Of a stretch of DNA of 64,000 bases, positions 601 to 35,076 are shown in pieces. The notes beneath the pieces are model-generated. The model saw only the letters and a program-made list of their open reading frames with translations. It was not told the DNA's origin and searched no databases. The stretch's first letter is position 1. The number at the start of each line of letters is the position of its first letter. The DNA is from an uncultured virus (IMG/VR IMGVR_UViG_3300022879_000001) (taxonomy: Duplodnaviria > Heunggongvirae > Uroviricota > Caudoviricetes). The translations under genes were made by a program, and so were the position numbers. The stretch is taken from IMG/VR virus record IMGVR_UViG_3300022879_000001; one strand, 5' to 3'.

Positions 601-637
601 ATAAAAGCCGTCTATTATAAAAAACAGAATAGGAGAG

Positions 638-799
638 ATCAATATTAAAAAGTGTCCACATTGCAATAAAGACTACTGTCAAGGTGATATGGTTGATATA
701 GGTATAGGTTTTGTTCAAGTATCAGAAGATACGCCTTCATGCGATTGTGAATATATTGAATGGATGAAAGAACAAGAGGTGATGGACAATGAATTTTAA
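638..799 (+). CDS. Small Cys-rich (zinc-finger-like) protein with non-canonical start
   Basis: AGGAG RBS at 631 followed by ATC/ATT; KKCPHCNKDYC...SCDCEY; open to TAA 797-799. Confidence 0.5.
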   Translation: MNIKKCPHCNKDYCQGDMVDIGIGFVQVSEDTPSCDCEYIEWMKEQEVMDNEF

Positions 800-1199
800 T
801 CAATTTTTATTAGAGAATGAAACGGTTATTGGTAAGCAAATATGGATCGTAGATTACCGTAGAGGTAAATCAGGAGGTTACGTAAGACACGTACCGCCTA
901 CATTAGTAAAGGTAACATGCAATTCAGAATTACCTAAGAATAAACGTGTTTATTATTCGGATTATCATTTTAGAAAAGTTAAGAATGGAAAAGTAAGTAA
1001 AGAAATACTTGCTCCTTATGACAATACAGGATACAGAAGTTATACAGGTGTTAGTGTAAATATCTTTTATACATACGAAGAAGCTGCTAAAAAGTATAAT
1101 GAACAGATTGAAGAGATTATTTACTTATACAATAATGAAATTAAAAATATAAGAAATGAAATGGATGAAGTAAATGATAGGAAAATAAAAATTACATAA
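789..1199 (+). CDS. Hypothetical phage protein
   Basis: 136-aa ORF with GAGGTG RBS. Confidence 0.7.
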   Translation: MNFNQFLLENETVIGKQIWIVDYRRGKSGGYVRHVPPTLVKVTCNSELPKNKRVYYSDYHFRKVKNGKVSKEILAPYDNTGYRSYTGVSVNIFYTYEEAAKKYNEQIEEIIYLYNNEIKNIRNEMDEVNDRKIKIT

Positions 1200-1448
1200 T
1201 ACAGATGTATTATTGAAAGGAGAAATGTAATGAATGATTATATTGTAAAAGTGTTTGATAGACATCCAATGACACATAATGAATGGTTTCTTGTAAAGTC
1301 AGGCAATAAAAAAGAAGCAATAAATAAAGTGCATCATAGGCTTGGTGGTGAATATTTTAAAAAAGATTTGAAGGCATTTACGCTTCAAGAGTTTTACGAC
1401 AATGAAGACATTGTGGTTATACATTAATCATTAACAGATAAAGGAGAG

Positions 1449-1809: not shown

Positions 1810-3450
1810 TGATAAAAATAAAACACTGGTCATTTACAATGGATTATGAAACAAATGAAATTGTTATGAAATCTGTAGTAGATGGTGAAGAAATACAGTT
1901 GAGAGTATGTGAAAAAGATATTAAAAGTATGCAAAGTTGGTTTGATTTAGCTAGACATATGAAGAAAAATTCAAATAGCTGAAAGGTGGGAAAAATGGTT
2001 GAATTTTATAGAGAGAATACTGTTTAAGTTAATTGATAGAAGATATGAAAAAGGGAAAGTGTTGTTTTTAGACGATGTAACCGATCTAATAGACGAATTA
2101 AAAGATAATGATAAACTATGGAATATTATAAATAAACAAGAAAAAGAAATCGACAGACTAAATAAGGAGATAATGAAGTTACAATATGAAATTGACTCAC
2201 CTATGGTAATGTTGAATGAAATTAGAAAAGAGCGATTAGCTAGGGGCTTTAGATAGAAGTTATTAATTACATAAAAGAGATATATTATGAGAAGGGAGAG
2301 TATTTTGATGGTTAAAATATATATTGATGAAAGAAGAGATTGTATGGCTTCTGGAGGAATGAGTGAATGCGATATTGATAACTTGAAAATCGTATGTGAT
2401 ACTTCTAAAGGAAAGAAGGAAGTACTAGTTTATATTAATAATGAAATTGTTTTTGGTAGAGATTTTTCTAGAGATGCAAGATTAATCAGTAATCATGTTC
2501 AAATTTATGATGAGAATTAAATAATAGGAATCTATTAAAGAAAGGACAGGTATTTATGAGCAATCACAGTAGAGTTGAGAAAACAATAGCCGAAAACATC
2601 AAGTTGAATTTAGGTGGTGGCGCAGATGCTACTGTAAATCTACATTTGAATGAGGAAGGGTTCTTACTTATCGAAGGACTAGGACTAGACTATGTAGAGT
2701 ATTCATTTGCACAACATGAAAATGATTTATTAGAAATTCAAATCTTATATCCCCATGATTATGGTGAGGAGTGATTGAATGTTTAAAATCATTCCTGTAA
2801 TGCAGTATCAAGACACTTTCTCTGCAAATTTATATTTTCAAAGTAAGAATATCGGTGGTGTCGGTAAGGATGACGAGGGGATATACGTAAACTTAAATAA
2901 AAGACTTACTGTTTCTCAAATGGCTGAATTATTAAAAACGATCAATATTATTGGTAAGGATTTCGGTAAAGAAGAAGTAAAATTTCAGTATGCTGAGGAC
3001 TTTAAATAAAAACTAAATATTATTTAATACATAAAACTAGGAGGATGATGTTATGTCTGAAGAGTACGTTGGATCTTTTATGGAGGTAATTAATACATTG
3101 GATGAGTGTTCGAAGAAGGATTTGCCACAAGAGTACAAACAATACTGCGAAGCAATGAAGAAGATATTTATGGGTATTGAACAGATAAATATCGAACTTA
3201 ATAAAAACTTTAATAATATTTTAGGAAATAGAAACATTTTAAATTAATTGGAGGAAGAACAATGGAATACTTAAACCAAATTCAAGTACTTGAAGAAGAG
3301 AATAAGTTATTACGTAAAGCACTTGAGTATTACGCAGACACAAAACACTACGAACCATATTGTATTCAAATGGGAGATTACGCTTCTGACGTTACTGAAG
3401 ACAATGGTGAGATAGCACGTCAAGTATTAAATAAAAGGAACATATTATAA
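1810..3450 (+). other. Array of about 7 small hypothetical ORFs (e.g. 1999-2256, 2287-2520, 2556-2774, 2779-3009, 3053-3247, 3262-3450)
   Basis: Co-oriented 60-85 aa ORFs, each with an RBS. Confidence 0.7.
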
Positions 3451-3493
3451 GAACATTGGGAGTCGATTTAAAAGTCGGCTCTCGAATATTAAA

Positions 3494-3542
3494 TAATAAA
3501 ATACATAAAATACTTTACATTCAACAAAATAATGGATATACT
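3494..3542 (+). promoter_or_regulatory. SigA promoter with conserved upstream element (copy 1)
   Basis: TAATAAAATACATAAAATAC-TTTACA-17bp-TATACT. Confidence 0.7.
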
Positions 3543-3578: not shown

Positions 3579-4649
3579 ATGGTTATGGCTAATTATAGAA
3601 CATCTTATATTAATGAGTATATTGGTGAAAGTATTGAAGAATTTCTACGATTTAAAGGTAAAAAATCAACTAATACAGAAAAAACGTACAGATCAGCATT
3701 AAACATGGTGTTCAAAGATATTTTATCTAAAAGAGAATATAAGTATATTACAGTAAGCGATATTGAAGATGGATTGAATTCAGATGTACTATTTGAATAC
3801 TTTGATGATTTATTTTATTGTGAAAAAGAAGATGGTAAAAGAAAGTATTCAAACCAAACAATAAATAATAGACAGTCAGCAATTAAATCACTTATTAAAC
3901 ATTTAAGAAATAGAAAGGTAATTAAATATGATTTAAATGATTTAACAGTCATAGAATCACTACCTGACACGGGTGAAGAAATAGAAATGATACCTTTTGA
4001 TTTGGCTATGGAGTATGCCGAATACTTTGCTAAGGAAGATCAAGGGTTGGAAAAATCGTTAATAATTAATTTAGCTGCTGAAACAGGTATGAGAGCAAGC
4101 GAACTATTATCTGTAGAATGGTCAAATTTCATCGAAGCTGATGATGGTGTTATTTTGAAATCTTATGGTTATAAAAAAGGTAAAGGAAATCAAGAATGGA
4201 TTGATAAAATCAGTAAGGACTTGTATAATGAGCTTTTACAATTGAAATCAATTGGAAATAATATTAAATTATTCACTCTTACTTATAAGCAATTAGTAGG
4301 TCTAATGGAAAGAGGAAATAATCTTTTAAATAAAACAGGTATCAACTACTCCTTCCACTCATTTAAAAAGCTTGCGGTAACTATGTGTTATTTAAATAAT
4401 AACAACTGTATTGACACAGCTATGAAAAAAGCAAGACATAGTAATGTAAATACCACTATGAGATATTTGAGATTAACTAATTTAAATGTTACAGGTATTA
4501 TATCTGCAAAAATGAATACTTCTGAAGAGATGTATAAAACAGTTTCTCATGAGTTATTGTTAGAATGTTTAGAAGAAATGCGTCCAGAAATGTTATTATT
4601 ACTAAATAATAAGATAAAAAATAAAGTGTCTAAGAGTGATTACCTATGA
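3579..4649 (+). CDS. Tyrosine recombinase, YopP/SroD-like
   Basis: ETGMRASELL, FHSFKK, ARHSN..TTMRY motifs; RBS AAAGGGG before ATG 3579; first gene of a YopPQR-like triad. Confidence 0.8.
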   Translation: MVMANYRTSYINEYIGESIEEFLRFKGKKSTNTEKTYRSALNMVFKDILSKREYKYITVSDIEDGLNSDVLFEYFDDLFYCEKEDGKRKYSNQTINNRQSAIKSLIKHLRNRKVIKYDLNDLTVIESLPDTGEEIEMIPFDLAMEYAEYFAKEDQGLEKSLIINLAAETGMRASELLSVEWSNFIEADDGVILKSYGYKKGKGNQEWIDKISKDLYNELLQLKSIGNNIKLFTLTYKQLVGLMERGNNLLNKTGINYSFHSFKKLAVTMCYLNNNNCIDTAMKKARHSNVNTTMRYLRLTNLNVTGIISAKMNTSEEMYKTVSHELLLECLEEMRPEMLLLLNNKIKNKVSKSDYL

Positions 4650-4702: not shown

Positions 4703-6037
4703 ATGCAAATTAATAAAACTAGAGAACAGTTAGAAATAGAAATTAAAAGCTTAATACAGTTATTTGCTTCAACAATTAGTAAAAAAGAGGTAGAATTAAT
4801 TGTTGAGCATTTACATGGTAAACATGGAATTAAAAAAACTAGTATTTATTCACTATTCAATAATTCAAACAATGTTGGAAGGCTTACTCAAGAAGAGATT
4901 GCTTTATTTGGTGAACAACTAGTCATTAAATTAGGTATTGATCAAAACGAATGGATGAACGTCTGGTTTACAGAACGTGAGAGAAAAGAGTTTGGAAGTT
5001 ATCAATTTGTAGATGTTCAATCAATGGATGAGATTGATTTCCCAATGGTAAAACAAAATGTAGTCGATCTGGGTGATGGATATTATCTAACGTCTTTTAC
5101 AAAACAGGAACTAGGTAGACTTTATAAATATGGCAAATTAGATTATAACCCTAATGTACAAAGAGGTATGCGAAAGGTCGTAAGATATGGATTAGTATCA
5201 GAAGAGCCTATAGTATTAAAAAAGAAAGTAAATGAAATTAGAAACTTAACTTTAAAAAATAAACTAAGACCATCTACTGTTATTTTTAACGCTAAACAAT
5301 ACAGTTCTGAAGAAGAGTCAGAATTAATTTATGATAATGATAAGAATACATTAACCATAACTGAGGGTACAGTGTTAGACATAGTTGATGGTATGCATAG
5401 AACTTTAGGTACTTATAGTGCTTATATTAGAGATAAAAATATACAAGGGTCTTTTCCTGTAATTATATCCAACAAATCAGATGAGGAAATTAAGAGATAC
5501 CAATTAGATTTAAATAAACACACTCCTCTTACTAAAGGTAGAGCCAATGAATTAAAAGAAGAAAACTATGCAAGTGATGTAATAAGTATTTTAAAATCTA
5601 AAGGTGAACTTAAAGATAGAATTACAACAAGTACGGATATTAAACATTCTTTAAAGGGTAATGAATTTATTCCATATAACATTTTATATAATGCAATAAG
5701 TAATGTTTATAAAATCAGTAGTCGATTAGAAGCTAGAAAAATTGCTGAGGAAATAAATGAATATTTAGTTTATTTATTTGGAGTTTTTGGTAAGCATGAG
5801 AATGATGAATACAAGGTTCTATTTGATGCTGATATCTTTGAAGGTCATTTAGCATTAATGAAGAAGATGAATGAAAATGAAATGAAGTATGATGAATTAG
5901 AAAAAATTATTGATATTAATGAATTCCATATAGAAAATGAACGTTGGAATGAATACAAATTATTAAATAAGAATATAGGTAAACTGTCTAAAAAAGACAG
6001 AAATAATATAGTTAAGTACTTTGAGAGTCTGATCTAG
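4703..6037 (+). CDS. DGQHR/DndB-like (ParB-fold) protein, YopQ/SroE-like
   Basis: YNPNVQRG and IVDGMHR motifs; lies between two recombinase-fold genes. Confidence 0.75.
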   Translation: MQINKTREQLEIEIKSLIQLFASTISKKEVELIVEHLHGKHGIKKTSIYSLFNNSNNVGRLTQEEIALFGEQLVIKLGIDQNEWMNVWFTERERKEFGSYQFVDVQSMDEIDFPMVKQNVVDLGDGYYLTSFTKQELGRLYKYGKLDYNPNVQRGMRKVVRYGLVSEEPIVLKKKVNEIRNLTLKNKLRPSTVIFNAKQYSSEEESELIYDNDKNTLTITEGTVLDIVDGMHRTLGTYSAYIRDKNIQGSFPVIISNKSDEEIKRYQLDLNKHTPLTKGRANELKEENYASDVISILKSKGELKDRITTSTDIKHSLKGNEFIPYNILYNAISNVYKISSRLEARKIAEEINEYLVYLFGVFGKHENDEYKVLFDADIFEGHLALMKKMNENEMKYDELEKIIDINEFHIENERWNEYKLLNKNIGKLSKKDRNNIVKYFESLI

Positions 6038-6049: not shown

Positions 6050-7024
6050 ATGTATAATGTTGAATACAAGGAAGCCTTTTTAGAAGCGTCTGAACATGCT
6101 GAAGAAACTAAGAATCAATATAGGTTGTATTTTAAAAAAACCGAACCTTTCGAAAATCAAAAAGGTAAAGATTTATTTGATATGGATTTTGATATGCTGG
6201 AAGAGCTGTTTTATTGGGTACAAAGAAAAACAGAACGTTCTGCTGTAAACTTCTTTAATACAATTAAGAATTATATTACATGGGCAAAAGACAATGGTTA
6301 TGGAGAAAGTCCACTTAATCCAATTATCGATACAATTAATACGGAATTTGTTTCAAAATATTTATATAAAGAAGGAATAAAATATTATACTAGAAAAGAT
6401 TTATTTAAGTATTTTGAGAACATGAATAATGTAAGAGACAAAGCTTTGGTCTTAGCTTTATTTGAAGGTATCAGTGGAAATAAGTTTTCAGAAATTATTA
6501 ATTTAAGAAGAGAAGATCTCTCAGAAAAAGAAGACAGATACTATGCTTCTCTACTAAGTGATGAAGTTGATTTAACTAATAGACAATTAGAAATATCAAA
6601 AGAGCTATATGATATGTTGATCGAAACTTACAATACACAAGAATACAAAAGTGTAAACGGAAGAGTAAACCGAGTTGTTGATGGAGAATATATCTTCAGA
6701 AAGAGTCGTCTCGGTAAATCTGATGTAAGAATAACAATACCTATGCTACAGAGTATTATTATTAATGTAGTAAAAGTTGCATTTGACGATGTGCAGATAA
6801 CAACGACATCTATTAACAACTCTGGGGTAATGTATTATGCAAATGAATTTATGAGCAGCGATAGAGTTCTCACAAAAGAAATAGCAACTAAAGTGACAGA
6901 AAAATTTGATTTATATAGTTTGGAAGTTAAAGGTAAGAAATATCCTTCGTTTATGAGATTTAAAGAAATTATAGATATAGATTATATGGAAGAAGAGTAT
7001 GGGAATTTTAAATTAGACTTCTAG
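6050..7024 (+). CDS. Integrase-fold master repressor, YopR (MrpR/SroF)-like
   Basis: MYNVEYKEAFL...FENQKGKDLFD N-terminus; LFEGISG.KFSEI lacks the catalytic Arg; synteny. Confidence 0.75.
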   Translation: MYNVEYKEAFLEASEHAEETKNQYRLYFKKTEPFENQKGKDLFDMDFDMLEELFYWVQRKTERSAVNFFNTIKNYITWAKDNGYGESPLNPIIDTINTEFVSKYLYKEGIKYYTRKDLFKYFENMNNVRDKALVLALFEGISGNKFSEIINLRREDLSEKEDRYYASLLSDEVDLTNRQLEISKELYDMLIETYNTQEYKSVNGRVNRVVDGEYIFRKSRLGKSDVRITIPMLQSIIINVVKVAFDDVQITTTSINNSGVMYYANEFMSSDRVLTKEIATKVTEKFDLYSLEVKGKKYPSFMRFKEIIDIDYMEEEYGNFKLDF

Positions 7025-8072: not shown

Positions 8073-8462
8073 ATGATAAAAATTTATACTGATAGCAGTT
8101 ATAAAGATGGAGTATCAACTCATCATTATTATGTGATGAATGGTAATAAAAGAATTAAAAGAAGAACATTTATAGGATTTGATGAATCATCTAATAAAGC
8201 TGAAGCTACAACTATAATTAAAGCTTTACAGATGGTGTTAAAGAAGGGATGGGAGAATGTAACTGTACACACAGATTCATTAGTTACTGTTTTTGGAGTT
8301 AAACATGGAAAGTTTAGTAATGAAGATTTTAGATACATAGCACATTTACTTAAAATAACAAAATCAAACATACAATGGAAGAACCGAAGACATTACCGAA
8401 TTAAAATAGCTGATACTGAATGTCGTAAGATGATGAAAACTAAATTAAGACGAGTAGTTTAA
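8073..8462 (+). CDS. RNase H-like protein
   Basis: IYTDSS...SNKAE...VHTDS...IAD acidic catalytic pattern. Confidence 0.8.
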   Translation: MIKIYTDSSYKDGVSTHHYYVMNGNKRIKRRTFIGFDESSNKAEATTIIKALQMVLKKGWENVTVHTDSLVTVFGVKHGKFSNEDFRYIAHLLKITKSNIQWKNRRHYRIKIADTECRKMMKTKLRRVV

Positions 8463-8894: not shown

Positions 8895-9295
8895 TAAAAT
8901 ACATAATGTATAGATATTATTTAAAATTAGTAATACATAAACGATGTTTAAGGATATTTAAAAACATAATTATCAAAAATATAATACATAAATGGAGAAA
9001 ATACATAATGACCCAATACATAGTTTCGTTAGTTTTAAATGGTGACGAATATAACGTAAATGTAAAGAAAGAAAACAAGGAAGATGCTTTACAGTATGCG
9101 AAGGACAAGCTTAAGTTTGACAAGATAATTGGAGTAGCTGAAAAGTTAGACTTTAAACGTAAACGTTTTGGCTATTTAGGCAATCCAGATCGTACACCAT
9201 ATGGCAGTAGAAGTAAGGATATGAAAGCAGCTAAGAATACTAAGCGTAGTCAAATCAAGTATGTAAAATAACATATACATAAAAGGAGAAATTAA

Positions 9296-10102: not shown

Positions 10103-10540
10103 ATGAACCAAGTTCATGAATTAAAAATTTTAAATGAGTATTTTGAGGGAGTTAATGAAGGGCTAAAAACCTTTGAAATTCGTAAAAATGACCGAAACTT
10201 TCAAGTTGGAGATTTTCTGTTATTAAAAGAATATACTGGAGAGCAATTCACAGGACGAGAAATATTACAACAAGTCACTTACATGACAAATTACGAGCAA
10301 AAAGAAGGTTATGTTGTCATGTCAATTCAAAGTGTACCAATTAGTTTTGGTTTTTATTTGAACATGAGTGAGAAAGAGAAGACTGTTTTTAAGAAGGTCA
10401 TTACTCACATGCATTTGTACGGAACAGGAGTCAGGGATGTAACCAATACTTTTTGGGAAATTATTGACGAACTTATAGAACGACGTGGGTTAACAGAATC
10501 AGACCAACAATGGTATATGGAATTTTGGAATGAAGATTAA
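10103..10540 (+). CDS. ASCH/PUA-like DUF3850 protein
   Basis: HELKI...G.KTFEIRKNDRNFQVGD.L.L.EY motif. Confidence 0.85.
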   Translation: MNQVHELKILNEYFEGVNEGLKTFEIRKNDRNFQVGDFLLLKEYTGEQFTGREILQQVTYMTNYEQKEGYVVMSIQSVPISFGFYLNMSEKEKTVFKKVITHMHLYGTGVRDVTNTFWEIIDELIERRGLTESDQQWYMEFWNED

Positions 10541-10943: not shown

Positions 10944-11006
10944 TCACTGAAAATGATATTAAATAATAGTGGAATTTTATCTAAAAAAAAATAAGGAGGT
11001 TTTAGT

Positions 11007-11453: not shown

Positions 11454-11459
11454 ATTAAT

Positions 11460-12278: not shown

Positions 12279-12324
12279 TAAATAGGATGTTTTTATATAA
12301 ATAATTAAAGTGAGGTGAACTGAG

Positions 12325-13220: not shown

Positions 13221-13485
13221 TAACGGAGATGATTAATTTGAAAGTAAATGTTGTTTATAAAGTACATTTAGATAAGAGAAATAGAATTGGTGAATTTTAT
13301 AAAGAGATAGCAAAGGTGTGCAGCAAGGATGAAAATGAATATTTGCAAGTAGCTTTACATAGAAAGAAAAATACAGAATCACATATTAGCTACATTTTAG
13401 GTCATTTAAAAGAGAGTGAATTAAGTAAGTACATAATCTTATAAAAGAATGATTTTATTAAATGAAAAATAAAAAAAGGATGAAA

Positions 13486-13736: not shown

Positions 13737-15024
13737 ATGGAAGAGTTGCGTTATAAGCCAAGTGAAGTTCAAAAATTAATCTTTAAAGATAAAGAAAATG
13801 TTTCAAACTATATTAATGTATCAATTGAAGAAATGGATTATATGATGGAATTAGCAATCAAATATCAGCAACTACATGAGACATGGTTCAAAGGAATCGA
13901 AAATGAAGAACCGACTATTTTATTCTTACGTAAATGCAAAGAAGTAATTGAAGAAGTAAAGCCTGAGTATAGAAAAACAATGACCTGATATTTAATAAAT
14001 AAGTATTATTGAAGGGATGTTGAGGATGAGTAAATTAGAAATAATCAAGAAGCAATGGACTGAATACGAGACAGAATTTGGCGAGAGTGATTTTATGGAT
14101 ATTGATAAACATACTAGCATGGCATTTAATGTACCAGTATTATTAAACAAATTAGATAAAATTCATAAAGATTTACTTCAGATGAAGAAAGACAGTAATT
14201 GTAAATATGTTGATATTGACTATATGTTAAATGCTATTGAAAATGAAAAATAGTAAGGAGAGATTTTAATGAACGATAAAGAAATAGAAATGACATTACC
14301 AAATGGTTACACTGTTGCAATTTTCGAATATGAAGGAAATATTGTATTAAATTTGATTAATGATAGAGGCTATTCAGTTTCAGATACAAAATTACATAAA
14401 TCAGAAATAGCGAAAATACATGAAATAACTGCTATTAAATAATAATTCACTTTTATGAAAGAGGTGTTAAGTTTGTGAAAAAGGAAGCATTTATTATAGT
14501 AGATGTTAATGAAAAGTATTACTGTGAAGAATTTATAGATGGTAATGGAGATCTCCATTGTAAGACAGATGATATTGATTTAGCTTTACATTTTGAAAGC
14601 CGTGAAGATGTTGAAGAATATTTAAAATATATTGCTTATCATGATTTCTTAAAGGAGCATAATCCTGAAAAAATTATTAAGGTTTTAATCGAATATCAAA
14701 TATCAGAAGAGTACCAGATTTAATAATAGTACGATATCATTTAAAGGATGTGAGATAAATATGGATAACCTAAGCTTAACTAACAAACCCTCAAGACCAG
14801 TCAAACCTAAGAAAGTGCCGAAAGGAACTAAAATTATTGCACTAGATGAAAATAAAATACTTATTAGCGAAGGAGATTGGCATCCAGAAGCAAGTACAAT
14901 AATAGATTTTAGTGCAAGATATGTTGATAGAGCAGGAATTGATCGATGTGGAAATGAACTTTTCGGTAATCGTGGATTTAAATATAAGGATTATGGTGTT
15001 AAATGGAATTTCTACAATGAATGA
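13737..15024 (+). other. Array of small hypothetical ORFs (13737-13988, 14017-14253, 14269-14442, 14475-14723, 14761-15024)
   Basis: Co-oriented short ORFs with RBS. Confidence 0.7.
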
Positions 15025-15090
15025 AGTTAATAAAATACACGTATTATTTAATCAATGATAACAAAAATACATAAAAAGGAATGATGTATA

Positions 15091-16215: not shown

Positions 16216-16480
16216 TTAGATAATATTTCAGTTTTATTAAAAGATGGAGAAAATGGAGGAATTATGATGAAAGTTAAAAAATTAATTAAACACAGTGCGG
16301 ACAACGAAACGTTTGAGATTTATAAAAACGAAACCCTTATGACTAAAGGATATGGTTTTGAAGAAAATGTTCAAAAATTCAAGAATAGAGAAATTTACTT
16401 CTTTCATTCATCAGATAGACATTCACTAATAGTTAACATTAAGTAAAAATCACATTTTATAAAAATTGGAGGAAAGTATT

Positions 16481-19306: not shown

Positions 19307-19551
19307 TAAATAACATTATACATAATTAAAAATAACTATCGAACCTTGAGTGATGTAAATAATTAAAATTTATACATATAAAGGTGAATTTTCTAAACAA
19401 TCGCATGTTCTCAAGTAATAAGTTTCGCCAAAGCTTATTGCATATTCTCAAAATAAAATCCTAATATTATTTAAACTTTAGTTAGGTACATTGTGATTTG
19501 TTCGATAGTTAAATGATAAAATACATAATTGAAATGGAGAGATTTATTAAT

Positions 19552-22136: not shown

Positions 22137-22146
22137 ATACATAATT

Positions 22147-22180: not shown

Positions 22181-22189
22181 AAATAAGAG

Positions 22190-22789: not shown

Positions 22790-22802
22790 GAGTTGAAAGC
22801 TA

Positions 22803-24293: not shown

Positions 24294-24316
24294 TAAAGAT
24301 ATAAGTAGGTGGAGGG

Positions 24317-25375: not shown

Positions 25376-25389
25376 ATAGGAGAGGTAAC

Positions 25390-26304
25390 TTGAGTAATTT
25401 ACCAAAATTCAGTTACAGTAAGTTGGCTACATTCGTACAATGTCCAATGAAATACAAGTACAAATACGTAGACGGTAACTATGTACAGTCCGATGCGATT
25501 CACTTGGATTTAGGAAACTTATTACATAAAGTATTGGAAATAAAATATAGAAACATAATTGAAGGTATACCCAATGATTACGCTTATTTAAAAGAAGTGT
25601 ATTTAAAAGGAATTGCAGAAGATACAGATAAGGATAAAGGAAACTTTATCATAGGTGTAAATGCTATCAAAGAAAAATTCGGAGAAGATACATTTATTGA
25701 AGTAAATACAAAAAGTAATTTAAGTTATGAAGATAAATTAGAAACCTTCTTACACTATCTTGAACAAGATTCTATTGGTGACTGGAAACCGTTGGCGGTC
25801 GAAATAAACTTTAACTTTGAATATGAAGGTAAAGTAATCCTTAATGGATTCATTGATCGAATTGACATTAACGATAAAGGAGAGTTACGTGTAGTCGATT
25901 ATAAATCATCAAATAAGGTATATGAAGATAAAGATCTAACTACTCCTTTACAAATGTTTATTTACGCTTTAGCTTGTGAAAACATTTTCGGTAAAACCCC
26001 CATAGAATTTATGTACGATATGATTTTACTAGGTGAGAAACAGTTAGCTTGTACAAAAGGTTATTATAAACGAGGGTTGAAGAAGTTAAACAAAATTCTA
26101 GATTCAATATTTGAAGTAGAAAAGTCAGGTTTATACGCTCCTAAAGCAACTCCGTTGTGTCATTGGTGTGATTATTCTATTACAAATCCTAATGCACCAT
26201 TTTATTCACAAGACTTATGTAATTACTACAGTTTATGGACACCTGACAATAAGACATTTAAAGTGAATCGAAAATTTGAGGAAAAAGATGAATTTGAATT
26301 TTGA
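25390..26304 (+). CDS. PD-(D/E)XK RecB/Cas4-like exonuclease
   Basis: FSYSKL..F.QCP, GFIDRID, VVDYKS, Q..IY, C..C Fe-S cysteines. Confidence 0.85.
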   Translation: MSNLPKFSYSKLATFVQCPMKYKYKYVDGNYVQSDAIHLDLGNLLHKVLEIKYRNIIEGIPNDYAYLKEVYLKGIAEDTDKDKGNFIIGVNAIKEKFGEDTFIEVNTKSNLSYEDKLETFLHYLEQDSIGDWKPLAVEINFNFEYEGKVILNGFIDRIDINDKGELRVVDYKSSNKVYEDKDLTTPLQMFIYALACENIFGKTPIEFMYDMILLGEKQLACTKGYYKRGLKKLNKILDSIFEVEKSGLYAPKATPLCHWCDYSITNPNAPFYSQDLCNYYSLWTPDNKTFKVNRKFEEKDEFEF

Positions 26305-26333
26305 AAGTGGGAGGCTAAGGGAGGAGTAATTAA

Positions 26334-28235
26334 TTGAGTAAATTACTAGAAGGTAAGAAATTAATATTTATGGACTTCGAAGTATTCTCTAATAGTATTC
26401 ATCCAGAAACAGGTCAACCTTATTGGATGGTTGTATTTATAGAATTAAGTTCTATGAAGAAGTTTACAATAAAAAACGATTACGATAAGTTACGATGGTT
26501 TTATAGTGTATATAAAGATGATGTATTCATTGGTTATAATATAAGAGGTTACGACCAATGGATTATGAAAGGTTTACTATTAGGACAGGATGCAGGATAT
26601 ATAACTAAACAAATTATCGAAGAAGATAAAAAGGGTAGCTATGTTGTTAGAAATCACAAGTCTATACCTATGAATATTTTTGATGTTGCAACTGGATTTC
26701 ATGGTTTGAAACAATTAGAAGCCTTTATGGGTAGTCGAATTAAAGAATCAGATGTACCTTTTGATATAGATAGACCTTTAACTCAAGATGAAGAAGATGA
26801 AGTAGAAGAATACTGTACTCATGATGTAATGGAAACAATCAAAGTTTATCATAAACGTATATCAGCTTTTAACGCTCATGTAGGGTTATTAGATATGTTC
26901 AATGTACCAATAGAACATATTTCTAAGACATCTGCACAATTAACAGCTCTTATATTAGAAGCTGAGAAACAAGAATATAAAAATGATGAATATGATTTCA
27001 TTTATCCTGATACATATCGATTAGAAAAATATCCACAAGTAAAAGAGTTCTTTGATTCAATAAAGAATGGGACATTTGTTCCGACAAAGTTTGAAAAAGG
27101 AAAACCTAAAATTGAGATTGAATTCGATATAGCAGGTGTACCTACAGTTTATGCACTAGGCGGACTTCACGGTGCGATTAAAAACTACATGTATGAAGGT
27201 AGAATTTATTCGCTCGATGTTGCGTCACTTTACCCTGCACTAATATTAGAATATGGATTAATGAGTAGAGCTTGTGAATCTGATGCTAAATTTAGATATA
27301 TTCGTGACGAACGTATTGTATTAAAGAAAGCTAAAAACCCTTTACAAGAAGCTTTAAAACTGGCGATCAACACAGTTTATGGTACGTTCGGAGATCAATA
27401 CAACAATCTATACGACAAACGTATGATGCGTTCGGTATGTGTAGCAGGGCAAATTCTATTAACTGATTTCATTGAACGCATCGAACCTTACTGTACATTG
27501 TTCAATTTAAATACAGATGGTGTATTCTTTGTATGCGAATCTGATGATAATTTAGCTAAGATTATTGAAGCACAAAAAGAATGGGAGCAACGTACTAGAC
27601 TTATCTTAGAGTTAGAAGATTATGTGAGAGTAGTACAGAAGGATGTAAACAATTACATCGTAGTACCAGAAGGTGAATTATATACTGAAGAAGGTAAACC
27701 TAGATGGAAAGCTAAAGGTGCTTATGTAAAACAATTATCTGAAATTGACTACGATTTACCAATTGTTAATTTTGCAGTAACTAATTATTTCTTAAAAAAT
27801 AAACCAGTTGAAGAAACAATCAATGAATGTAATAAATTACATGACTTCCAACGAGTAGTTAAGATGACTAACGCTTATGACTATGCAAAGAAGAATTGTA
27901 AGTTTGAAGCAGTCAAAGTATTAAATGAAGTTACAGGTAAAATGAATAAGAAAGTAATGTTAGTAGACGAAGGGTATTTACTGCAAGATAAAACTTTCCG
28001 AGTATTCGCTTCATTAAGAGAAGAGGATGGAGGGTTATTTAAACAGAAAAAAGGAGAAAATCCTGCTAAATTCCCTAACACTTCTGAAAAATGCTTCATT
28101 GATAACGAATCTATGGAAGGTAAAACAGTTCCAGATTATTTAGATCGTCAATTCTACATCGATTTGGCACAGAAACGAGTGAATCATTTCTTAGGAGTTA
28201 GTAACCGTAAGAAGAAGGCGGATACTAGTGATTGA
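26334..28235 (+). CDS. Family B DNA polymerase
   Basis: ExoI DFE, ExoII YN..GYD, ExoIII YCTHDV; PolB motifs DVASLYP, KLAINTVYG, NTDG. Confidence 0.9.
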   Translation: MSKLLEGKKLIFMDFEVFSNSIHPETGQPYWMVVFIELSSMKKFTIKNDYDKLRWFYSVYKDDVFIGYNIRGYDQWIMKGLLLGQDAGYITKQIIEEDKKGSYVVRNHKSIPMNIFDVATGFHGLKQLEAFMGSRIKESDVPFDIDRPLTQDEEDEVEEYCTHDVMETIKVYHKRISAFNAHVGLLDMFNVPIEHISKTSAQLTALILEAEKQEYKNDEYDFIYPDTYRLEKYPQVKEFFDSIKNGTFVPTKFEKGKPKIEIEFDIAGVPTVYALGGLHGAIKNYMYEGRIYSLDVASLYPALILEYGLMSRACESDAKFRYIRDERIVLKKAKNPLQEALKLAINTVYGTFGDQYNNLYDKRMMRSVCVAGQILLTDFIERIEPYCTLFNLNTDGVFFVCESDDNLAKIIEAQKEWEQRTRLILELEDYVRVVQKDVNNYIVVPEGELYTEEGKPRWKAKGAYVKQLSEIDYDLPIVNFAVTNYFLKNKPVEETINECNKLHDFQRVVKMTNAYDYAKKNCKFEAVKVLNEVTGKMNKKVMLVDEGYLLQDKTFRVFASLREEDGGLFKQKKGENPAKFPNTSEKCFIDNESMEGKTVPDYLDRQFYIDLAQKRVNHFLGVSNRKKKADTSD

Positions 28236-28303
28236 TATTAATAAATAAATTACATAAAAATTAAATATTATTGAAAATACATAAAAGAAAGAGGTAATTT
28301 TTA

Positions 28304-29344
28304 GTGCAGAAAAAACACGTAGTAATGTTTAGTACAGGTGCAGGAAGTGCATGGTTAGCTAAATATGTAGTAGACAAGTATGGTAAGGAAAATACGATCA
28401 TCTTAATTACAGATACTAAATGGGAAGATGAAGACAATTACCGTTTCATGAAAGAAGTTGCTGATTATATTGGAATAAAGATCACAGAAAAAAATGATGG
28501 ACGTACTCCAGAAGATATTTTCCGTAAGGATTTGTATTTTGGAAACTTTGGAACTGCACCATGTAGCAAAGAGTTAAAGATGAAGCAAACATTTTTATAC
28601 ATACAAGAATTGATTGATCAAGGAATTATGCCAATATTATACTTCGGTATTGATTATAAAGAAGCTAGACGAGCTCCACGACTAGCTTATAATTATAAAC
28701 ACAATGTAGATGTATTCGAAGATGGGGTAGAATTAAGATTTCCTTTGATTGCTGAAATTGATGGAGAACCAGTTAGCGGTAAACAACTAATACATAGTAG
28801 AGATTTCTTGAATTCAGAGAAAATGCCTAAAGTATACAATAAAGAAATTTATGAATCGTTAGATGATCAGAATGCTGTCATTTGCACAGCTAATCCAAAA
28901 GTAGAAATTGAAAATGAGTGGGGAATAAAGTTACCTAGGATGTATACTGCTGTAGAAGAAGCAGCAAAGAATAAAAACAATATCAAAGCAAATGAATTAT
29001 TAGAAAAAGGAGTAAAAGGTTTTTCACATGCAAACTGTGGAGGAATATGTGTAAAAGGTGGTACGGGACATTACTCAGTTTTGTATGCTGTCTGGAAAGA
29101 TAGATATTTAAAAATGGAAAAGTTAGAGCGAGAAATTAACGAGGCACAAATTGCTAAGAATGGACGTAGATACACAATTTTAAGCAAGATGATCGGCACT
29201 GGTGAGTTTGATGAAAAAGGTAAAGAGAAGAAAAAGAAAGCACCATATTCATTAGAGGAATATCGCATTGAGGTACTGGAAGGAGATATTAATAAAGATA
29301 TTGAAATAGTAGAAGACAATGTTTCATGTGAGTGCGTATTCTAA
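28304..29344 (+). CDS. PAPS-reductase-like (PP-loop) protein
   Basis: FSTGAGS, DTKWEDED, PCSKELK, GID..E..R, HANCGG.CVKGG. Confidence 0.7.
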   Translation: MQKKHVVMFSTGAGSAWLAKYVVDKYGKENTIILITDTKWEDEDNYRFMKEVADYIGIKITEKNDGRTPEDIFRKDLYFGNFGTAPCSKELKMKQTFLYIQELIDQGIMPILYFGIDYKEARRAPRLAYNYKHNVDVFEDGVELRFPLIAEIDGEPVSGKQLIHSRDFLNSEKMPKVYNKEIYESLDDQNAVICTANPKVEIENEWGIKLPRMYTAVEEAAKNKNNIKANELLEKGVKGFSHANCGGICVKGGTGHYSVLYAVWKDRYLKMEKLEREINEAQIAKNGRRYTILSKMIGTGEFDEKGKEKKKKAPYSLEEYRIEVLEGDINKDIEIVEDNVSCECVF

Positions 29345-29955
29345 ATAAAAAAATACATAATTGATTTTAAATAAAAGAAACCTATTATAAAAGGAGATTG
29401 ATTACATATGTCTAACAAACGACGAGAAATGTTTTTATCAGGAAATCCAGTATTAAAACGATTTACTAAAAATACTGTTGTTAAGAATTTTGGAATCACT
29501 TCTGAAGAGTTTGATAAGTTGATTGATGATGGATTTATTGAAGAAAATAATAATGACATCTGTGTTAGCTGTTATCGAACTTGGAATCACGACCACGATC
29601 AATGTGTTTATTGTGGAGATGAGGAATTTGACAAGGAAGATAGCTATTACAGTTACAAGTGACATTTAATAAAAGGAATATTTTATAAAAAGTGAATTAA
29701 ATAATTTTACAAATAAATAATAACGAAAGATAGGTGATTAAGATGCTTTGTATTAAATGTAATAAAGAAAATACTAAATGCATTGATGATATGCTACAAC
29801 CACTTTACATAGCCGAGATATATGAGTGTAATGACTGTAAAGGTACAATTGAAGTAATTTACAATGGAGAAATTAAAAAAGATAAAATTAAAGATTATCG
29901 TTATTATAAGATTTTATAAAACACGCATTTTAATAAAAGTATTGGGAGGAAATAA

Positions 29956-30883
29956 ATGAAGAAATACGATATTAAATTATCATTTAATGAACTAGAATTG
30001 ATTGATGGTAAGGTTTCTGAAGATGCTCAAAAAGTAATTCAACTAGCTAGAAAAGAAAACTCATTTGGATTTTCATTAACAGTGATGAATGAAATTCTAA
30101 GAAAATGGACTGTTAAATTGGAGATACAAAGAAATCAGCAATTGCAGTTATTGTGATGACAAACCTCGTGATTACTATACGTATCCAAGAAGCACAAAAT
30201 ATCATAGAAAAGGTGAAAAGAATTATAGTAAACCAAAATACTATTCAGGTATTAAATTCAATGAAGGGTTTGTAACGATCCAAGGACAAGGGGATATGTG
30301 TCGAGAATGTTGTGAAAAACATAATGTAATTAACCAATTAATTGATTATATTCTAGCTAATGACTTGAAGATTCAAATTCAAAAGAATGATTATAAAGAC
30401 AGTAAGTACCTAAAAGATGACATCAGAATATGCTACAACTGCGATAGTGAAATGAAAGAATCGGAAATGGGTAAATCTTCAACTATGATGGGAGATGGTA
30501 ATTATCCATCTACATGCCCTAAATGTGAAGCCAAAGGCTCGGCATTCGGTAAAAGCCATATTACAACAAGTAATTTTACACATAGAATAAATCCATTATA
30601 CTCAGAAGAAGTACAAGAAATTAAAGAATTGATTAAAATACATAATCAAATTAATGAAAAAGATTTGCATATTAGGCTAGGACAATCGAAAAGAAACGAA
30701 AACGCTATTATTGTACAAGAAACTGAATTTAAAAATGGTTATCGTGAAGTGGTTGACTTTGATTTAGAAAAGAAAATCTATTATGTAGGTCATTTTTGGA
30801 AAGACAAAGTTAATGATTTTGTTAAAGTGTTGAAAAATAACGGATATGAAGAAACAGAAAACAGATATTTAATAGTAAGGTAA
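29956..30883 (+). pseudogene. Cys-rich hypothetical protein, frameshifted near 30104
   Basis: Alternate frame NGLLNWRYKEISNCSYC... runs without a stop into ORF 30296-30883. Confidence 0.65.
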
Positions 30884-30910
30884 TTAAATAAAAAACATGG
30901 AGGAATATTT

Positions 30911-33900
30911 ATGACATTAACAAAACAGAATTTAAAAAACACTTTTAAAGGTGCAAGAACAGTCGGTTCACCATTTGTATTTGTGGGTATTGAAGCAGAA
31001 GGGATTAAAGAAGTAATTTCTATCCCATCAGCATCATTTGAAGCAAAGGAACAGTTTTACAATAATGCGTATTCAGATGATCTGGTACATGTAATGAATA
31101 GTAAAGTGAAAATTACAGGGTTGGCTCACGGCTACCCAGAAGCACTTACCGATTTAGTTTAAGAAATGTTAAACATACCAATGAGAGGAGAATTAAAATA
31201 GGAATCTATTCTTATGGAAATCATGATAAAAAGACAAATATTCAAGATGACAAAACATTAATGGAATATCTGGAGATAGTTAATAAAGATCGTACATATC
31301 AACTTGTAGTAAGACAAGAGTTTCATTTTGAGAAAGGTTTACTTAGAACAAGCAAATATAATTGGTATGAGGTTTTTGTAGATATGGGTAATGGTGAACG
31401 ACAACATTTATATAATTGTGTCAACAGAGACATTGTAGAAGCTTATTTATGGGGACGTGTTCATGGTATAGAGGTTAAATAAAATCACACTATTATTAAA
31501 TTAGAAGGGAATAGTTAGTATGGATAATTTATATAAAGTAGTGCATCCAAAAGTAGATATTAGAGACTTTGTAGATTTTAAAGATAAAGATGCGGTAGTT
31601 GTAATGTTTCGGACACTTCAGGATGCAGAATGGTATTTATTGAAAAAACGTTTTAAATTTGACAAGCGTAATGACAGTTATATATTCACTAAAAATAATA
31701 CAACAAGTATAGCATCAATTATTGATATGACAGATGGGACGACTATTAAATAAAAGATTAGTATTATCAAATACATAATTGGAGTTGATCTTATGCAAGA
31801 TGGGAAAACAGTAACCGAACAGAATGTATGGGAGCATTATAAAAAGGTGGAAGCTGAAAACTTTCATCTCAAGAAACAACTCGTCAATAAGAATAGACAA
31901 ATTAAGCAGCTTAAACGTGTGATTAGTACACTGAAAGCTAAGTATGAAAAGCTTACTGAAAATCGTAGACCTAAGTACAAAAATACAATTAGAAGAAAGT
32001 AGGATGAATATTGATGGACAGTGTAAAAGTTAATATCAAATGTGAGACAGGTATTTTTGATCGTGATGAAGTAGAGATGAATCAATATCTAGAATTAGTA
32101 GATGAAGATGTTGTTGGCTTACTTCCAGATAATAAATTCATTGGCGTTAAGGTTTCAGTTGAAAAATAAAATAGGTGGCGACTTACGCTAGAGGAGATTA
32201 ATTTATGAAGAATTTTTTAATGAATGTAATGGACTTAAAAGTTTTCGATGAGAAAGGTAAGCTTATAACAAAGCTAGACTCGGCTACAAAAGGGGTACTA
32301 GTACATAGTGATCAGGCATCATATTTCGCAATTAATATTACAGACTTTAATATTGATATGATTAAAGCTATCGGAGAAGTTGAGAACAACAAAGATTTAT
32401 CAGACTTTGAAAAAGAATTAACACCTAAGTCAACTAAAATTAAATTTAAGCCATTGTATCATAGTGAAAACCAGAAGAAGTTTAAGTTAATTGCTGAAGG
32501 GAATTTACATAATGCCCTAGGTGATCCATCTCATGAATTTAAAGTAGTAATTAATGAATCAGTTTTATCATCTGGATTAGAATTTGAATTTAGCAATGTT
32601 GATATGAGTGAGTATACTCATGTATTTAGTATTTATGTAGATAAAGATGGAAATAGCTTTGAGTTAGAATTAATTGAAAAATAAATAGCAGATATTCTAG
32701 AAATCATGAAAGTGGAAAAATTTGTGAAATTTTTCATCATTAAAAGCCTATAAGCGCTGGATATAGAATTTCATTTCACAAACTTTTTCTCAATAAAATG
32801 ACAATATTATTTAATTATAAAAATACATAAACAGAATGGAGTAAATTAATTATGAAGAATACTTACATTAGCGAATTGTACCAAGAATTATTACTAGGAT
32901 TGAACGGATTAATAAATAAGACAGTTGAGATTCAAAAAACACAAGAAAGTAACACTCATGATTATCGTAAAGCTTTGTCGTTTCAATTAGAGCTAGAGAA
33001 AACTAAATTAAGTATTATGCAATCACTATCTGATTCATTTGATACTAAAATCAAGAGTAAGGAATTAGTAGGGTACGATAATGATGGTCGAGAGGTGTTC
33101 AAGATTAAAGAAAACGGTGATGCTCGTTTCGTTGGAGAAATTTCTACCCAAGATTTAAAGAAATCGAATGAAGATGAAGAAGTTGCAGTCAATGACAACG
33201 CAGTAAGTGATCTACTCGATACTCTTTGGGAAGAAGTGCGGAAGGTTGTGGATGAAAGCTTAAAAGAAGTTGATGAGAAAAATAAACATCATATCAACAT
33301 TACACTTAATGGATGTGAAACTTCTGCGAAACAATTTGCTACAGAAATCATGAATAAGATTAGAAATAATAAAGGTTGTAAGCTCTAAATAATATTTTGA
33401 TTTTATAAAAGGAAATATAAAAATAGAAAAGAGGAATTTAATTATGAAAGGAATTAAAGGAATGACAGGTATGTGCGGATTAGAAGTATTGAACAATAAA
33501 TTACATGAGCTTCAAAATGAGAAGGATATTCTTCTTTGCACATATGGTAATGATGTAATTTATAAACCTGAGCATAGAAGAATAGTTGCTGATATTCAAA
33601 TTCTAAACAAGGCTATTGAAGATTTTAACCTAAAAGAAATTCATTCCAATGTAGAAGGATACGTAAAAGAAACTTCATACGACCAAAATTCAGGTTTGAC
33701 AGTCTAGGTATGGTCGAAGGATGTCTATATTACGATGTAACTGAAGTTAAATAATATTTTGCTTTTATGAAGTTAAATACATAAACTTAAATGAAAAGGA
33801 AGGTAATTATATATGAAGAGTATTTTAGTAATTGTCGAAAATAGAGGTTTAATGAACGCTGTTATTATGGAGATAAAAAAGAATATAGAGGTTAATTCAA

Positions 33901-35076
33901 TAAGCGTTCAACATGCCTCTAATCAAGCAACTCTAACTGGAGAAAATATAAAGATAAAAGTAGCATCTAATGATGTTTCAGAAATTGATAAATTTGGATA
34001 TGATGAAGTTATTGAGTTGACAACCAAGAAACTAGTAGACGACATGTTGTTTAATTTAACAAAAGAGAGTATTTCTAAATTACTATCAGAAAATGAAGGT
34101 AAGAAGATTATTGGTTCTATAGACAATATTGTTGTAACTGGATATCCAGTTAGTATACATAGTAGAGAAAAAGTGTTAAACAAAGAGGAAGTAGAAAAGA
34201 TGCTAAAAAATACAGCTCAAACTGGAAAAGTAATTGGAGAGGCATTATTAGGTGTACGAAGTTCATGCATTAATTGTGCTAAAGACAAACAAGATGCAGG
34301 AAATTTTAATCTTAATTCAATTCCATTACAACTACTTTCCAAAGTAAATAGTGAAACGTCTAGTAAAGAAATTGATTGTATCTTAAATACTGTTAAGAGT
34401 ATTTTTCCATCAGGAGTTATTAAGTATGACAAAGAAGGTATTGAACTAATAAGAATTGAGAGAATCCTAGAGGATAAAATTAAAGAAAATCTAAGTAGTG
34501 ACGAATATAAAGCATTAGAAATCAATGTGAAATTATTACAGAAAATAAAGGAAGGATATAAACCTGCAACATTTGTTGGCTATAAAGCTTAAATAAAAAC
34601 CATATTTTATAAAGAAAAGTACACAGAAGGGAAATGATTATATGACAACAATGACCGTCTTAACTTCGGATGACATGTCAAATGTAAAAGTAGAAATTAA
34701 AAATGTTTCAGTTAAATATTATGAATATGATGAAAATATTCCAGAGCAATTATACTCACGCTTCAAGTCAGATACACCTTCAAAAATCATTTTTGGATCA
34801 GAGAATGAATATACGCAATCATTGATAAAGCAACTTTATGATAATGGATTTTATTTGTCTGAGAATGGTGATGTAATTAAAATTGCAGATAATAAAGTAT
34901 GCTATAACACTCTAGAAAAGACAATTGGAGATAAACTAGGTATCTTTACATTAGAAATTAATGATGAATATGATGCAGAAAATACTCAAAACGTATTGTT
35001 GAAGAGTGGCTATATTATTTCATCTAAAGTTATTGACGGTACTTCGCATATTACAATTCATGACAAGGTAAAGTAA
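30911..35076 (+). other. Array of hypothetical ORFs (30911, 31261, 31520, 31793, 32205, 32852, 33444, 33813, 34642)
   Basis: Co-oriented ORFs, many bounded by ATAAWA-N6-TWTTAT sites. Confidence 0.7.

Follow-up and report, generated by a model that had tools for sequence, protein, structure and literature searches.

What does a short inverted motif, repeated at the junctions of small genes with a different middle at different places, do for a phage genome? The question is raised by 64,000 nucleotides of DNA from an uncultured virus of the Caudoviricetes (IMG/VR record IMGVR_UViG_3300022879_000001; this whole stretch is called the window here), in which an 18-bp pseudo-palindrome, ATAAWA-N6-TWTTAT, carries a six-base spacer of variable sequence between its inverted arms. 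The first 47 kb of the window, which is about 70% A+T, form the early region of a temperate phage of SPbeta type, with its genes on the plus strand. A first-pass annotation, made from the letters alone, had seen in the motif an integron-like system for capturing and shuffling gene cassettes. Comparison with related genomes shows that in two branches of the SPbeta family the 18-bp sites are exact junctions of module exchange, each tagged for its position. They may be conserved crossover (linker) sites at which SPbeta-like phages swap the gene modules of their early regions, a reading that in our judgment might as readily be right as wrong.

The 18-bp sites and their six-base middles

The window holds 22 exact copies of the motif, against a mean of 0.57 and a maximum of 3 in 100 dinucleotide-preserving shuffles and an average of 0.6 in 30 Markov simulations. 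The first-pass annotation, which had proposed a scan against shuffled sequence, counted 21 copies; the strong enrichment is borne out and every coordinate it gave is present, with the exact count corrected to 22. Twenty copies fall within 601-34610 and the others lie at 41559 and 58302 (Table 1). In the Markov simulations, versions with one mismatch are at chance level (12 observed vs 10.8), as are those with two (94 vs 110), so the 18-mer is sharply defined. The near-matches reported earlier at 2521, 8903, 10042, 13992, 14723, 16443, 29916, and 61046 do differ by a single mismatch, whereas the one at 12279 has two mismatches or a one-base indel. The degenerate sites at 2521, 8903, 12279, 13992, and 16443 each share their spacer with the exact site that occupies the corresponding collinear position of a relative.

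The 18-mers lie before the next ribosome-binding site and almost always at gene junctions. Among the 21 sites in 1-48 kb, 10 overlap or directly adjoin the stop codon that ends the preceding open reading frame (ORF) and 6 more lie at most 27 nucleotides (nt) from it, in agreement with the placement originally described. A further claim, that the core blocks are free of sites, stands for the replication block (none at 19470-28254) and fails for the nucleotide-metabolism block, which contains the site at 41559. Conservation extends weakly beyond the 18-mer, with TTAA on the left (T 18/22, T 20/22, A 17/22, A 17/22 in the window sites) and nnAA on the right (the third and fourth bases after the site are A in 20/22 each). 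Each arm has six invariant or near-invariant bases, to which the left TTAA (17-20/22) and the right nnAA can be added.

Three related proviruses of 133-155 kb (G002, G003, and G004) were found by scanning for a 19-base stretch of a second intergenic motif, the ATACATA element discussed below, and both motifs are present in them. They carry 36, 39, and 37 copies of the 18-mer, respectively, vs 0-1 for a reversed control pattern, nearly all of them in the early half of the provirus (35 of 37 in G004). Across 124 exact sites in these four genomes (the window and G002-G004) the spacer is 6 bp throughout and the arms are inverted, apart from a single position that is systematically asymmetric. One ATAAAA arm is combined with one ATAATA arm in 103 of the 124 sites where about 62 are expected (Fisher p = 4e-14), which makes the earlier statement that the W positions do not pair stronger than it was put. 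Of the heterotypic sites 60 point one way and 43 the other, the remaining 21 of the 124 being symmetric (in G002, 20 forward and 12 reverse), and this argues against an RNA element, a promoter, or a simple homodimer binding site. Judging from the arms, this is what a site would look like if it were read by two unlike subunits or required an ordered reaction. A further asymmetry is seen within the spacer, where T is rare at position 6, next to the right arm (5/124 sites; 0/22 in the window), and the mirror position 1 has no corresponding avoidance of A (31/124 A).

The 124 sites hold 62 distinct spacers, of which 41 recur in 2-4 genomes and 21 are found in one only. Cross-genome pairs with identical spacers number 89 vs 4.4 expected, and spacer order is fully conserved, with a Kendall tau of 1.0 in all six genome pairs on the basis of 10-21 shared tags each. 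These comparisons show that the six-base spacer acts as a position tag between genomes. Genes come and go between tags. In the window, the gene at 15091-16215 is directly followed by tag TTTCAG; in G003 its homologue is followed by tag TTCTGC, then by 2.7 kb, and then by TTTCAG. Another gene, referred to as gene Y, stands after tag TTTTGA in G002 but after tag TGACAA in G004. The 21 single-genome tags would be expected from inserted pieces that bring their own site. A target-site duplication was also considered and rejected, as adjacent sites with like spacers are found once only, at 33389 and 33751; these two sites, alike at 17 of 18 bases, bracket a single gene of 87 amino acids (aa).

Synteny breaks and flanks in two phage lineages

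The sequence shared around the sites was delimited by local alignment of 150-bp flanks, with a score threshold of 30 compared to a random 99th percentile of 13.5-17. At least one flank is homologous in 40 pairs of sites: both in 7, the left only in 13, and the right only in 20, so that 33 of the 40 orthologous pairs are one-sided. The spacer is kept in 10 of the 13 pairs alike on the upstream side only and in 18 of the 20 alike on the downstream side only. The first-pass annotation had placed the crossover inside the 6-bp spacer; this detail is not supported, as the whole 18-mer, spacer included, usually stays with the conserved flank (28 of 33 one-sided pairs have identical spacers). In 57 further identical-spacer pairs neither flank is homologous and only the site is shared. 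Identity past the 18-mer runs for 0-1 nt in 9/10 right-side and 0-6 nt in 18/18 left-side cases among the one-sided pairs, and, where both sides differ (57 pairs), for no more than 6-7 nt; unrelated sites give the same background (means 0.8-1.1 nt). By alignment, then, the shared island is exactly the 18-mer. At site 14439, for example, the left flank matches G002 with an ungapped identity of 0.98 over 60 bp and no match continues beyond the site. Because the site stays whichever neighbour is exchanged, the 18-mer is not the property of one gene.

Gene order gives the same picture. A tblastn comparison of 80 window ORFs with G002-G004 (E <=1e-4, coverage >=50%) found synteny breaks in 25 of 25 informative comparisons at the 15 junctions with an exact 18-mer, vs 9/35 at junctions with only an ATACATA element, 28/45 at tight junctions (<30 nt), and 9/18 at junctions with other gaps; these figures come from three interrelated genomes and from arrays that are variable anyway, and a break includes the mere absence of a homologue. 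Counted by junction, 15 were always broken and 0 continuous at exact sites vs 22 and 25 elsewhere (Fisher p = 1.4e-4), and several of the breaks scored as lying elsewhere are at the decayed, tag-keeping sites 2521, 8903, 12279, 13992, and 16443. The alignment of related phages had been suggested in the first-pass annotation as a test, with breakpoints unrelated to the sites counting against it; the breaks are at the sites. The comparisons thereby support the sites as junctions of gene-module shuffling, and the first-pass interpretation holds in part.

Closer relatives add individual cases. The window phage is present as short contigs in 9 public sequencing runs (Logan; soil or unspecified metagenomes), four of which were examined. 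In one variant contig the gene after site 34593 is replaced, starting from 34611, and loose contig ends lie near sites at 34613 and at 16244, the latter 7 nt after site 16220. Joints at 31500-31750, 29675-29874, and 18022-33424 have short sides (22-34 letters) and are too weak to use. IMG/VR contains identical fragments of the window phage and one contig that is 83% identical (L021), whose homology breaks off immediately 3' of site 29371, the spacer still being shared. In a database of isolated phages, only three Bacillus phages match the window, with 74% identity over 0.8 kb. At 18 loci of distant Peptostreptococcaceae prophages (polymerase 36-40% identical), neither the 18-mer nor the ATACATA motif is enriched, with 0-3 18-mer sites per locus and none at 9 of the 18, and a search of these prophages for any enriched 6-N6-6 inverted repeat found none; the breakpoint analysis therefore left them out.

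The same architecture is present in the SPbeta group of Bacillus phages. When all 6-N6-6 inverted repeats in 50 kb of SPbeta were counted without preference for any arm, 17 had ATAAAA arms vs 2.6 expected, and the whole SPbeta record contains 30 distinct ATAAAA-N6-TTTTAW sites vs 1-2 in the control, most of them where genes of the yoq, yor, and yos small-gene arrays meet. Among the early regions of SPbeta, phi3T, Goe11, SPbetaL1, and SPR, identical-spacer pairs number 82 vs 2.85 expected and are collinear in 10 of 10 genome pairs. Neither flank is homologous in 34 of the 82 pairs, the left only in 10, the right only in 19, and both in 19. Goe12, Goe13, and SPbetaL2 lose their homology to SPbeta at 116431, which is the right edge of the site at 116414-116431.

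The Bacillus sites have an asymmetry of their own. In Bacillus it is the outermost base that is asymmetric, in the window lineage the fifth, and the SPbeta form ATAAAA-N6-TTTTAA is mostly one-directional, with 13 on the coding strand vs 4 on the other (60/43 in the window lineage). Positions of this form include 86073, 86885, 87598, 88399, 92393, 92752, 95128, 115043, 118469, 118866, and 126702.

Candidate proteins, mechanism, and competing explanations

Two proteins encoded in the window, both named as possible recombinases in the first-pass annotation, could be the enzyme of such an exchange: a YopP-like member of the tyrosine-recombinase family, which is the leading candidate, and a XerD-like recombinase with the canonical motif set. 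The cognate enzyme of a core-type site binds it, cleaves it through a 3'-phosphotyrosine link, and exchanges the strands; for the two candidates the analysis covered presence and motifs. The YopP-like protein is present in all site-carrying genomes compared; in the four genomes and SPbeta it keeps Arg, KGKGN, HSFK, His, and Tyr, and the order of the YopP-, YopQ-, and YopR-like genes is the same in SPbeta. A second PF00589 protein is likewise kept in each of G002-G004. In the accessible part of the literature, YopP is given a XerC-type domain and no function.

The mechanism that we favor, with our confidence evenly divided, is site-specific exchange by a tyrosine-recombinase-family protein for which the 6-bp tag is the overlap that must match. 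The arms would be bound by the recombinase, and the six-base middle would be the overlap requiring a match between partners. A site would then recombine with the equivalent site of a relative present in the same cell, so that modules are traded in register; exchange with any of the other ~35 sites in the same genome, an event that would cost the phage genes, would be rare. Now and then, sites with unlike tags would recombine, or a site would do so with one brought in on incoming DNA, and this would add or remove one slot and give rise to new tags. A fuller version, to which we give somewhat under an even chance, would be a natural recombinase-mediated cassette exchange in which ~35-40 heterospecific sites per genome use their 6-bp overlaps as addresses for YopP, possibly with a partner. 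The unlike arms would here be read by a tyrosine-recombinase-family pair or enzyme, and rare exchange between unlike addresses would insert or remove single slots.

Several points weigh against exchange by a site-specific recombinase. Strand exchange at the sites is proposed from the comparison of genomes and contigs, and since the genomes compared number only 3 + 4 and are related, pair counts overstate the number of independent events. The YopP-like proteins have HSFK where HxxR is usual; if the two are aligned so, Lys stands where Arg II is expected, which makes their activity uncertain. Strong conservation covers just 6 bp of each arm, with ~4 weaker positions besides, and recombinase-binding arms are typically 9-13 bp, mostly longer than those of the 18-mer. 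The extra conservation of spacers over adjacent homologous flanks is modest in the window lineage (9/132 positions diverged vs 204/1380, p = 0.004, for pairs that are not independent) and absent in the closely related Bacillus set (22/306 vs 224/4260), so selection on the tags is only suggested. A crossover within the spacer is not visible directly, with a single possible chimeric spacer seen (GATAGA vs GATTCG), the homology of gene Y begins at its start codon and not at a site edge, and other loose contig ends lie off the 18-mers, at 16288, 18001, 22110/22118, 30227, and 32686. Finally, homologous recombination dominates in laboratory hybrids of phi3Ts and SPbeta, where, in the part of that report available, 15 of 16 recombination sites are at homologous regions (10.1101/2020.05.06.055103). 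The single non-homologous joint described there comes after yosA (10.1101/2020.05.06.055103), the gene that adjoins the SPbeta site 116414-116431.

These hybrids count in favor of another account, which we regard as possible rather than probable. In it the arms would be bound by a protein that regulates or silences the early region, such as the ParB-like YopQ/SroE or another dimeric DNA binder, and would owe their conservation to this; recombination would then make use of the 18-bp islands as the sole sequence that diverged modules have in common. The exchange itself would proceed by general or phage homologous recombination or by template switching at the bound site, and profile searches do find AAA_24/Sak4-like, PD-(D/E)XK, and RuvC-like proteins encoded in the window. 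The 18-mers are confined to the early half, like repressor boxes, and are pseudo-palindromic, intergenic, and near ribosome-binding sites. SPbeta YopQ is reported to have a ParB_N_Srx domain (PMC8612738), SroE is described in what is accessible of a 2025 preprint as a second repressor (10.1101/2025.11.27.690993), and the shuffling mediated by PeSLs in T4-type phages, considered below, is a precedent. Binding by a regulator leaves unexplained, however, why unrelated DNA begins at the exact motif edges in 57 pairs and why the tags are perfectly collinear, and a homodimeric binder would favor symmetric arms, yet 103 of 124 sites are heterotypic. Homologous recombination would be expected to leave identity islands of variable length, whereas the island is exactly the motif, and 18 bp is short for homologous exchange. 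The operator for a dimeric regulator, which the first-pass annotation had offered as its alternative, may explain the conservation of the arms but does not by itself account for position-specific spacers between unrelated flanks.

A transcription signal belonging to each small gene (a "moron"), either a promoter for sigma-A, the phage sigma factor, or a phage RNA polymerase, or else a terminator, is very improbable. TATTAT does resemble a -10 hexamer, the sites are 5' of ribosome-binding sites, and at 19453 a TTGCAT stands at about the -35 distance. There is, however, no conserved -35 element at 16-18 bp, and at 1196, 2271, and 29371 only 2-4 nt separate the end of TWTTAT from the Shine-Dalgarno sequence, so a transcript starting 6-8 nt downstream would lose it. 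Moreover, 43 of the 124 sites are reversed and would present TTTTAT, which is without the key A, and a stem of six A-T pairs with a mismatch is no terminator. Both the promoter and the terminator were thus rejected on geometry; a generic promoter scan was uninformative in the AT-rich window, with 110 and 93 matches vs 127 and 106 in shuffles. That AT-rich intergenic DNA and stop-rich gene ends alone produce the motif count has practically no probability left, even though the window is AT-rich and the left arm contains TAA: shuffles give 0.57 copies instead of 22, the reversed control gives 0-1 per 130-155 kb, one- and two-mismatch versions are at chance, and cross-genome spacer identity is 20x expectation.

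A likely multi-site operator of a different kind is the second and stronger intergenic motif, TTAAATAATAAAATACATAAAA, whose core ATACATAA occurs 43 times on the coding strand vs 6 times on the other. The related AAATACATAA has 25 copies vs 1.05 expected and is often embedded in TTAAATAATAAAATACATAAAA. This ATACATA element stands directly 5' of ribosome-binding sites or of sigma-A-like -35/-10 pairs, with examples before -35 elements at 3501, 11467, 18012, and 36435 (3489-3510, 11455-11476, 18000-18021, and 36423-36444), and junctions that have only this element are mostly syntenic (26/35 comparisons). We derived the SPbeta repeated element (SPBRE) from seven SPbeta upstream regions named in the accessible text of PMC10516654. 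It reads AAATACAAAaAATATGTATATA, with a core of ATACA-N7-TGTAT within a ~24-bp box, holds the ATACATA half, and has the same kinds of placement as the window element. Boxes of this kind lie at early promoters or in the stretch from promoter to ribosome-binding site. The YopR-type repressor SroF is reported to read its ~24-bp box as a monomer (10.1101/2025.11.27.690993). The window encodes an MrpR/YopR-like repressor that also matches the solved structure 8a0a. Since the SPBRE half, the placement, and the long oriented ~24-bp box all fit, the ATACATA element, and not the 18-mer, is likely the box of this MrpR-like protein, with a stoperator-like behavior. The 18-mer itself was rejected as an MrpR/SroF operator, as it bears no resemblance to the ATACA ... 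TGTAT box.

Gene content of the window and comparison with known systems

Past the YopR-like gene, the early region consists of small-ORF arrays and a phage sigma factor (12594-13220), followed at 19.5-28.2 kb by a replication block (AAA_24, DnaB-like, primase, PD-(D/E)XK, and family-B polymerase). Further small ORFs lie 3' of this block, and then ribonucleotide reductase, thymidylate synthase, and DHFR. The plus-strand early region ends with a large serine recombinase of 822 aa at 44565-47033, and 48-64 kb is mainly minus-strand, with an actin-like protein, an FtsK-like protein, a holin, an M15 peptidase, and the XerD-like recombinase; the late region is outside the window.

Table 1. The 18-bp sites and the candidate site-binding or site-recombining proteins of the window.
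Feature	Position	Strand	Spacer or profile match	Comparison
Site	601..618		GCCGTC	same spacer in G004, left flank only homologous
Site	1196..1213		CAGATG	same spacer in G003, right flank only homologous
Site	2271..2288		GAGATA	same spacer in G004, flanks without homology
Degenerate site, 1 arm mismatch	2521..2538		GGAATC	exact in G004
Site	3006..3023		ACTAAA	same spacer in G002 and G004, flanks without homology
Site, left edge of conserved yopP-yopR block	3431..3448		GGAACA	G003, G004: right flank only homologous
YopP-like tyrosine-recombinase-family protein, candidate enzyme	3579..4649 (ORF from 3456/3579)	+	PF00589 1.7e-10; phrog_1 integrase	
YopQ-like protein, candidate site-binding regulator	4703..6037	+	phrog_5732 1.3e-72	
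MrpR/YopR/SroF-like repressor, recombinase fold	6050..7024	+	PF22822 3.8e-17; PDB 9rd5 5.5e-20, 8bjv 4.1e-10	
Degenerate site, right edge of conserved block	8903..8920		TATAGA	exact in G003, G004; synteny break
Site	10963..10980		GTGGAA	exact match; flank comparison with relatives
Degenerate site	12279..12296		GGATGT	exact in G003
Site	13441..13458		GAATGA	exact match
Degenerate site	13992..14009		AATAAG	exact in G002, G003
Site	14439..14456		ATTCAC	tag in 4/4 genomes
Site	15030..15047		TACACG	exact match; flank comparison
Site	16220..16237		TTTCAG	tag in 4/4 genomes
Degenerate site	16443..16460		ATCACA	exact in G003, G004
Site before replication block	19453..19470		TCCTAA	both flanks homologous with G003, G004
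Site after replication block	28254..28271		ATTAAA	tag in 4/4 genomes
Site	29371..29388		GAAACC	homology with L021 and G002 ends directly 3'
Site	29669..29686		GGAATA	exact match; flank comparison
Site	31479..31496		TCACAC	tag in 4/4 genomes
Site	31750..31767		GATTAG	tag in 4/4 genomes
Site	32793..32810		TGACAA	exact match; flank comparison
Site	33389..33406		TTTTGA	tag in 4/4 genomes
Site	33751..33768		TTTTGC	exact match
Site	34593..34610		ACCATA	variant contig joint from 34611, loose end 34613
Site in nucleotide-metabolism block	41559..41576		CATGGA	exact match
Site, minus-strand late/lysis region	58302..58319		TGTGTA (TACACA on other strand)	same 18-mer in G003, G004 late regions
XerD-like tyrosine recombinase, canonical motif set, second candidate	61072..62139	-	PF00589 5.7e-36	

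The sigma factor (Sigma70_r2 5e-06, phrog_351) is 58-61% conserved in G002-G004. Products of the accessory slots include an RNase H-like protein (8073-8462), a DUF3850/ASCH protein (10103-10540), and a macro-domain protein (11901-12278), which are candidates for counter-defence or for RNA- or ADP-ribose-related functions; by the tblastn criteria above, only the RNase H-like gene has a counterpart among G002-G004, and the other two are absent. A stretch of ~40 bp occurs twice, at 19518-19556 and 20947-20986, with 97.5% identity (a self-match of L019 and L022). It lies before and runs into two neighboring genes of the replication block (starts 19513/19552 and 20964/20982), and spans the ATACATA element, the ribosome-binding site, and the first codons. 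A YfkB-like radical-SAM gene comes after the serine recombinase, and 44565-48196 may be a prophage end or attachment region, although the site at 58302, beyond it, is common to the late regions of G003 and G004. An actin-like (ALP_N) segregation protein (48620-49465) and an FtsK/SpoIIIE-family ATPase (52193-54484) adjoin the lysis genes; such a pair is not usual in an SPbeta-like phage that integrates, and it hints at maintenance in plasmid fashion or at a neighboring element.

The sites bear on an open question about mosaic phage genomes, namely whether module boundaries arise by exchange at short conserved linkers or by illegitimate joining at random, with selection acting afterwards. In the present case explicit linkers mark the accessory-gene boundaries of an entire phage family, with a protein-like consensus and position tags, and because SPbeta and phi3T, which grow in laboratory strains of Bacillus subtilis, share the architecture, the question becomes accessible to genetics and long-read sequencing. 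Our literature searches, which were without most subscription journals, found no description of these sites or of ~35-40 unique collinear middles. If confirmed, the address mechanism would be categorically new and would offer a ready-made set of orthogonal recombination sites. Recombination by YopP would be the first candidate function for this core gene of SPbeta-group phages and could explain the rapid shuffling of counter-defence and other accessory genes.

Among known systems, the PeSLs (promoter-early stem-loops) of T4-type phages are also short conserved intergenic motifs concentrated among non-essential small genes; as described in the accessible portions of these reports, they consist of a sigma-70-type promoter and a terminator stem-loop, any two of which recombine by homology to give mini-circles (PMC2839356, PMC4122927). 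The 18-mer is like them in being a short conserved motif among small genes at which indels and replacements between relatives end. It differs in being by its geometry neither promoter nor terminator and in its position-specific middle, kept in order across genomes. Identity with PeSLs was rejected, as the 18-mer has no -35 element, its hexamer abuts the ribosome-binding site, and its stem is A-T only with a mismatch. Linker sequences have been proposed for modular phage evolution and, in the accessible text of the source, could not be found at most mosaic boundaries (PMC3029335). The present sites share with that proposal mosaic junctions at short conserved sequences between modules; they differ in that linkers are present at every informative exact-site junction and have one protein-like consensus. 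Many intergenic copies of one motif, restricted to particular regions of a temperate phage, are also seen in the SPBRE/SroF(MrpR) boxes (PMC10516654; 10.1101/2025.11.27.690993) and, in multiple copies, in the stoperators of mycobacteriophage L5, which are reported to be asymmetric and in a single orientation (PMC3029335). The 18-mers resemble both in number and placement, and differ from stoperators in occurring in orientations of 60 and 43 plus 21 symmetric sites.

Integron attC sites are folded sites of ~57-141 bp with paired R and L boxes, and pdif modules are found on plasmids of Acinetobacter. Like these systems, the window has arrays of mostly single genes in one orientation with putative recombination sites between them, and its slots differ between relatives. 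The integron-like label is nevertheless not supported, as the conserved unit is 18 bp with nothing kept beyond 0-7 nt. Integrons also have an IntI-type integrase with an extra domain, encoded beside attI and the Pc promoter, and the match obtained here is to the generic PF00589. Nor is the 18-mer an attC, not being a folded site of 57-141 bp and having a spacer that is kept equally with the upstream or the downstream neighbor, whereas an attC moves together with its upstream gene. The core sites of tyrosine recombinases (lox, FRT, and dif) have inverted arms around an overlap of 6-8 bp, and heterospecific lox or FRT pairs have been engineered for cassette exchange. The 18-mer resembles these in its inverted arms around a 6-bp middle, and its two unlike arms recall dif with XerC and XerD. 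It differs in its shorter arms and in forming a natural array of ~35-40 different middles, known here from sequence. As with the engineered pairs, unlike middles would block recombination on the same molecule and allow exchange with a matching site elsewhere.

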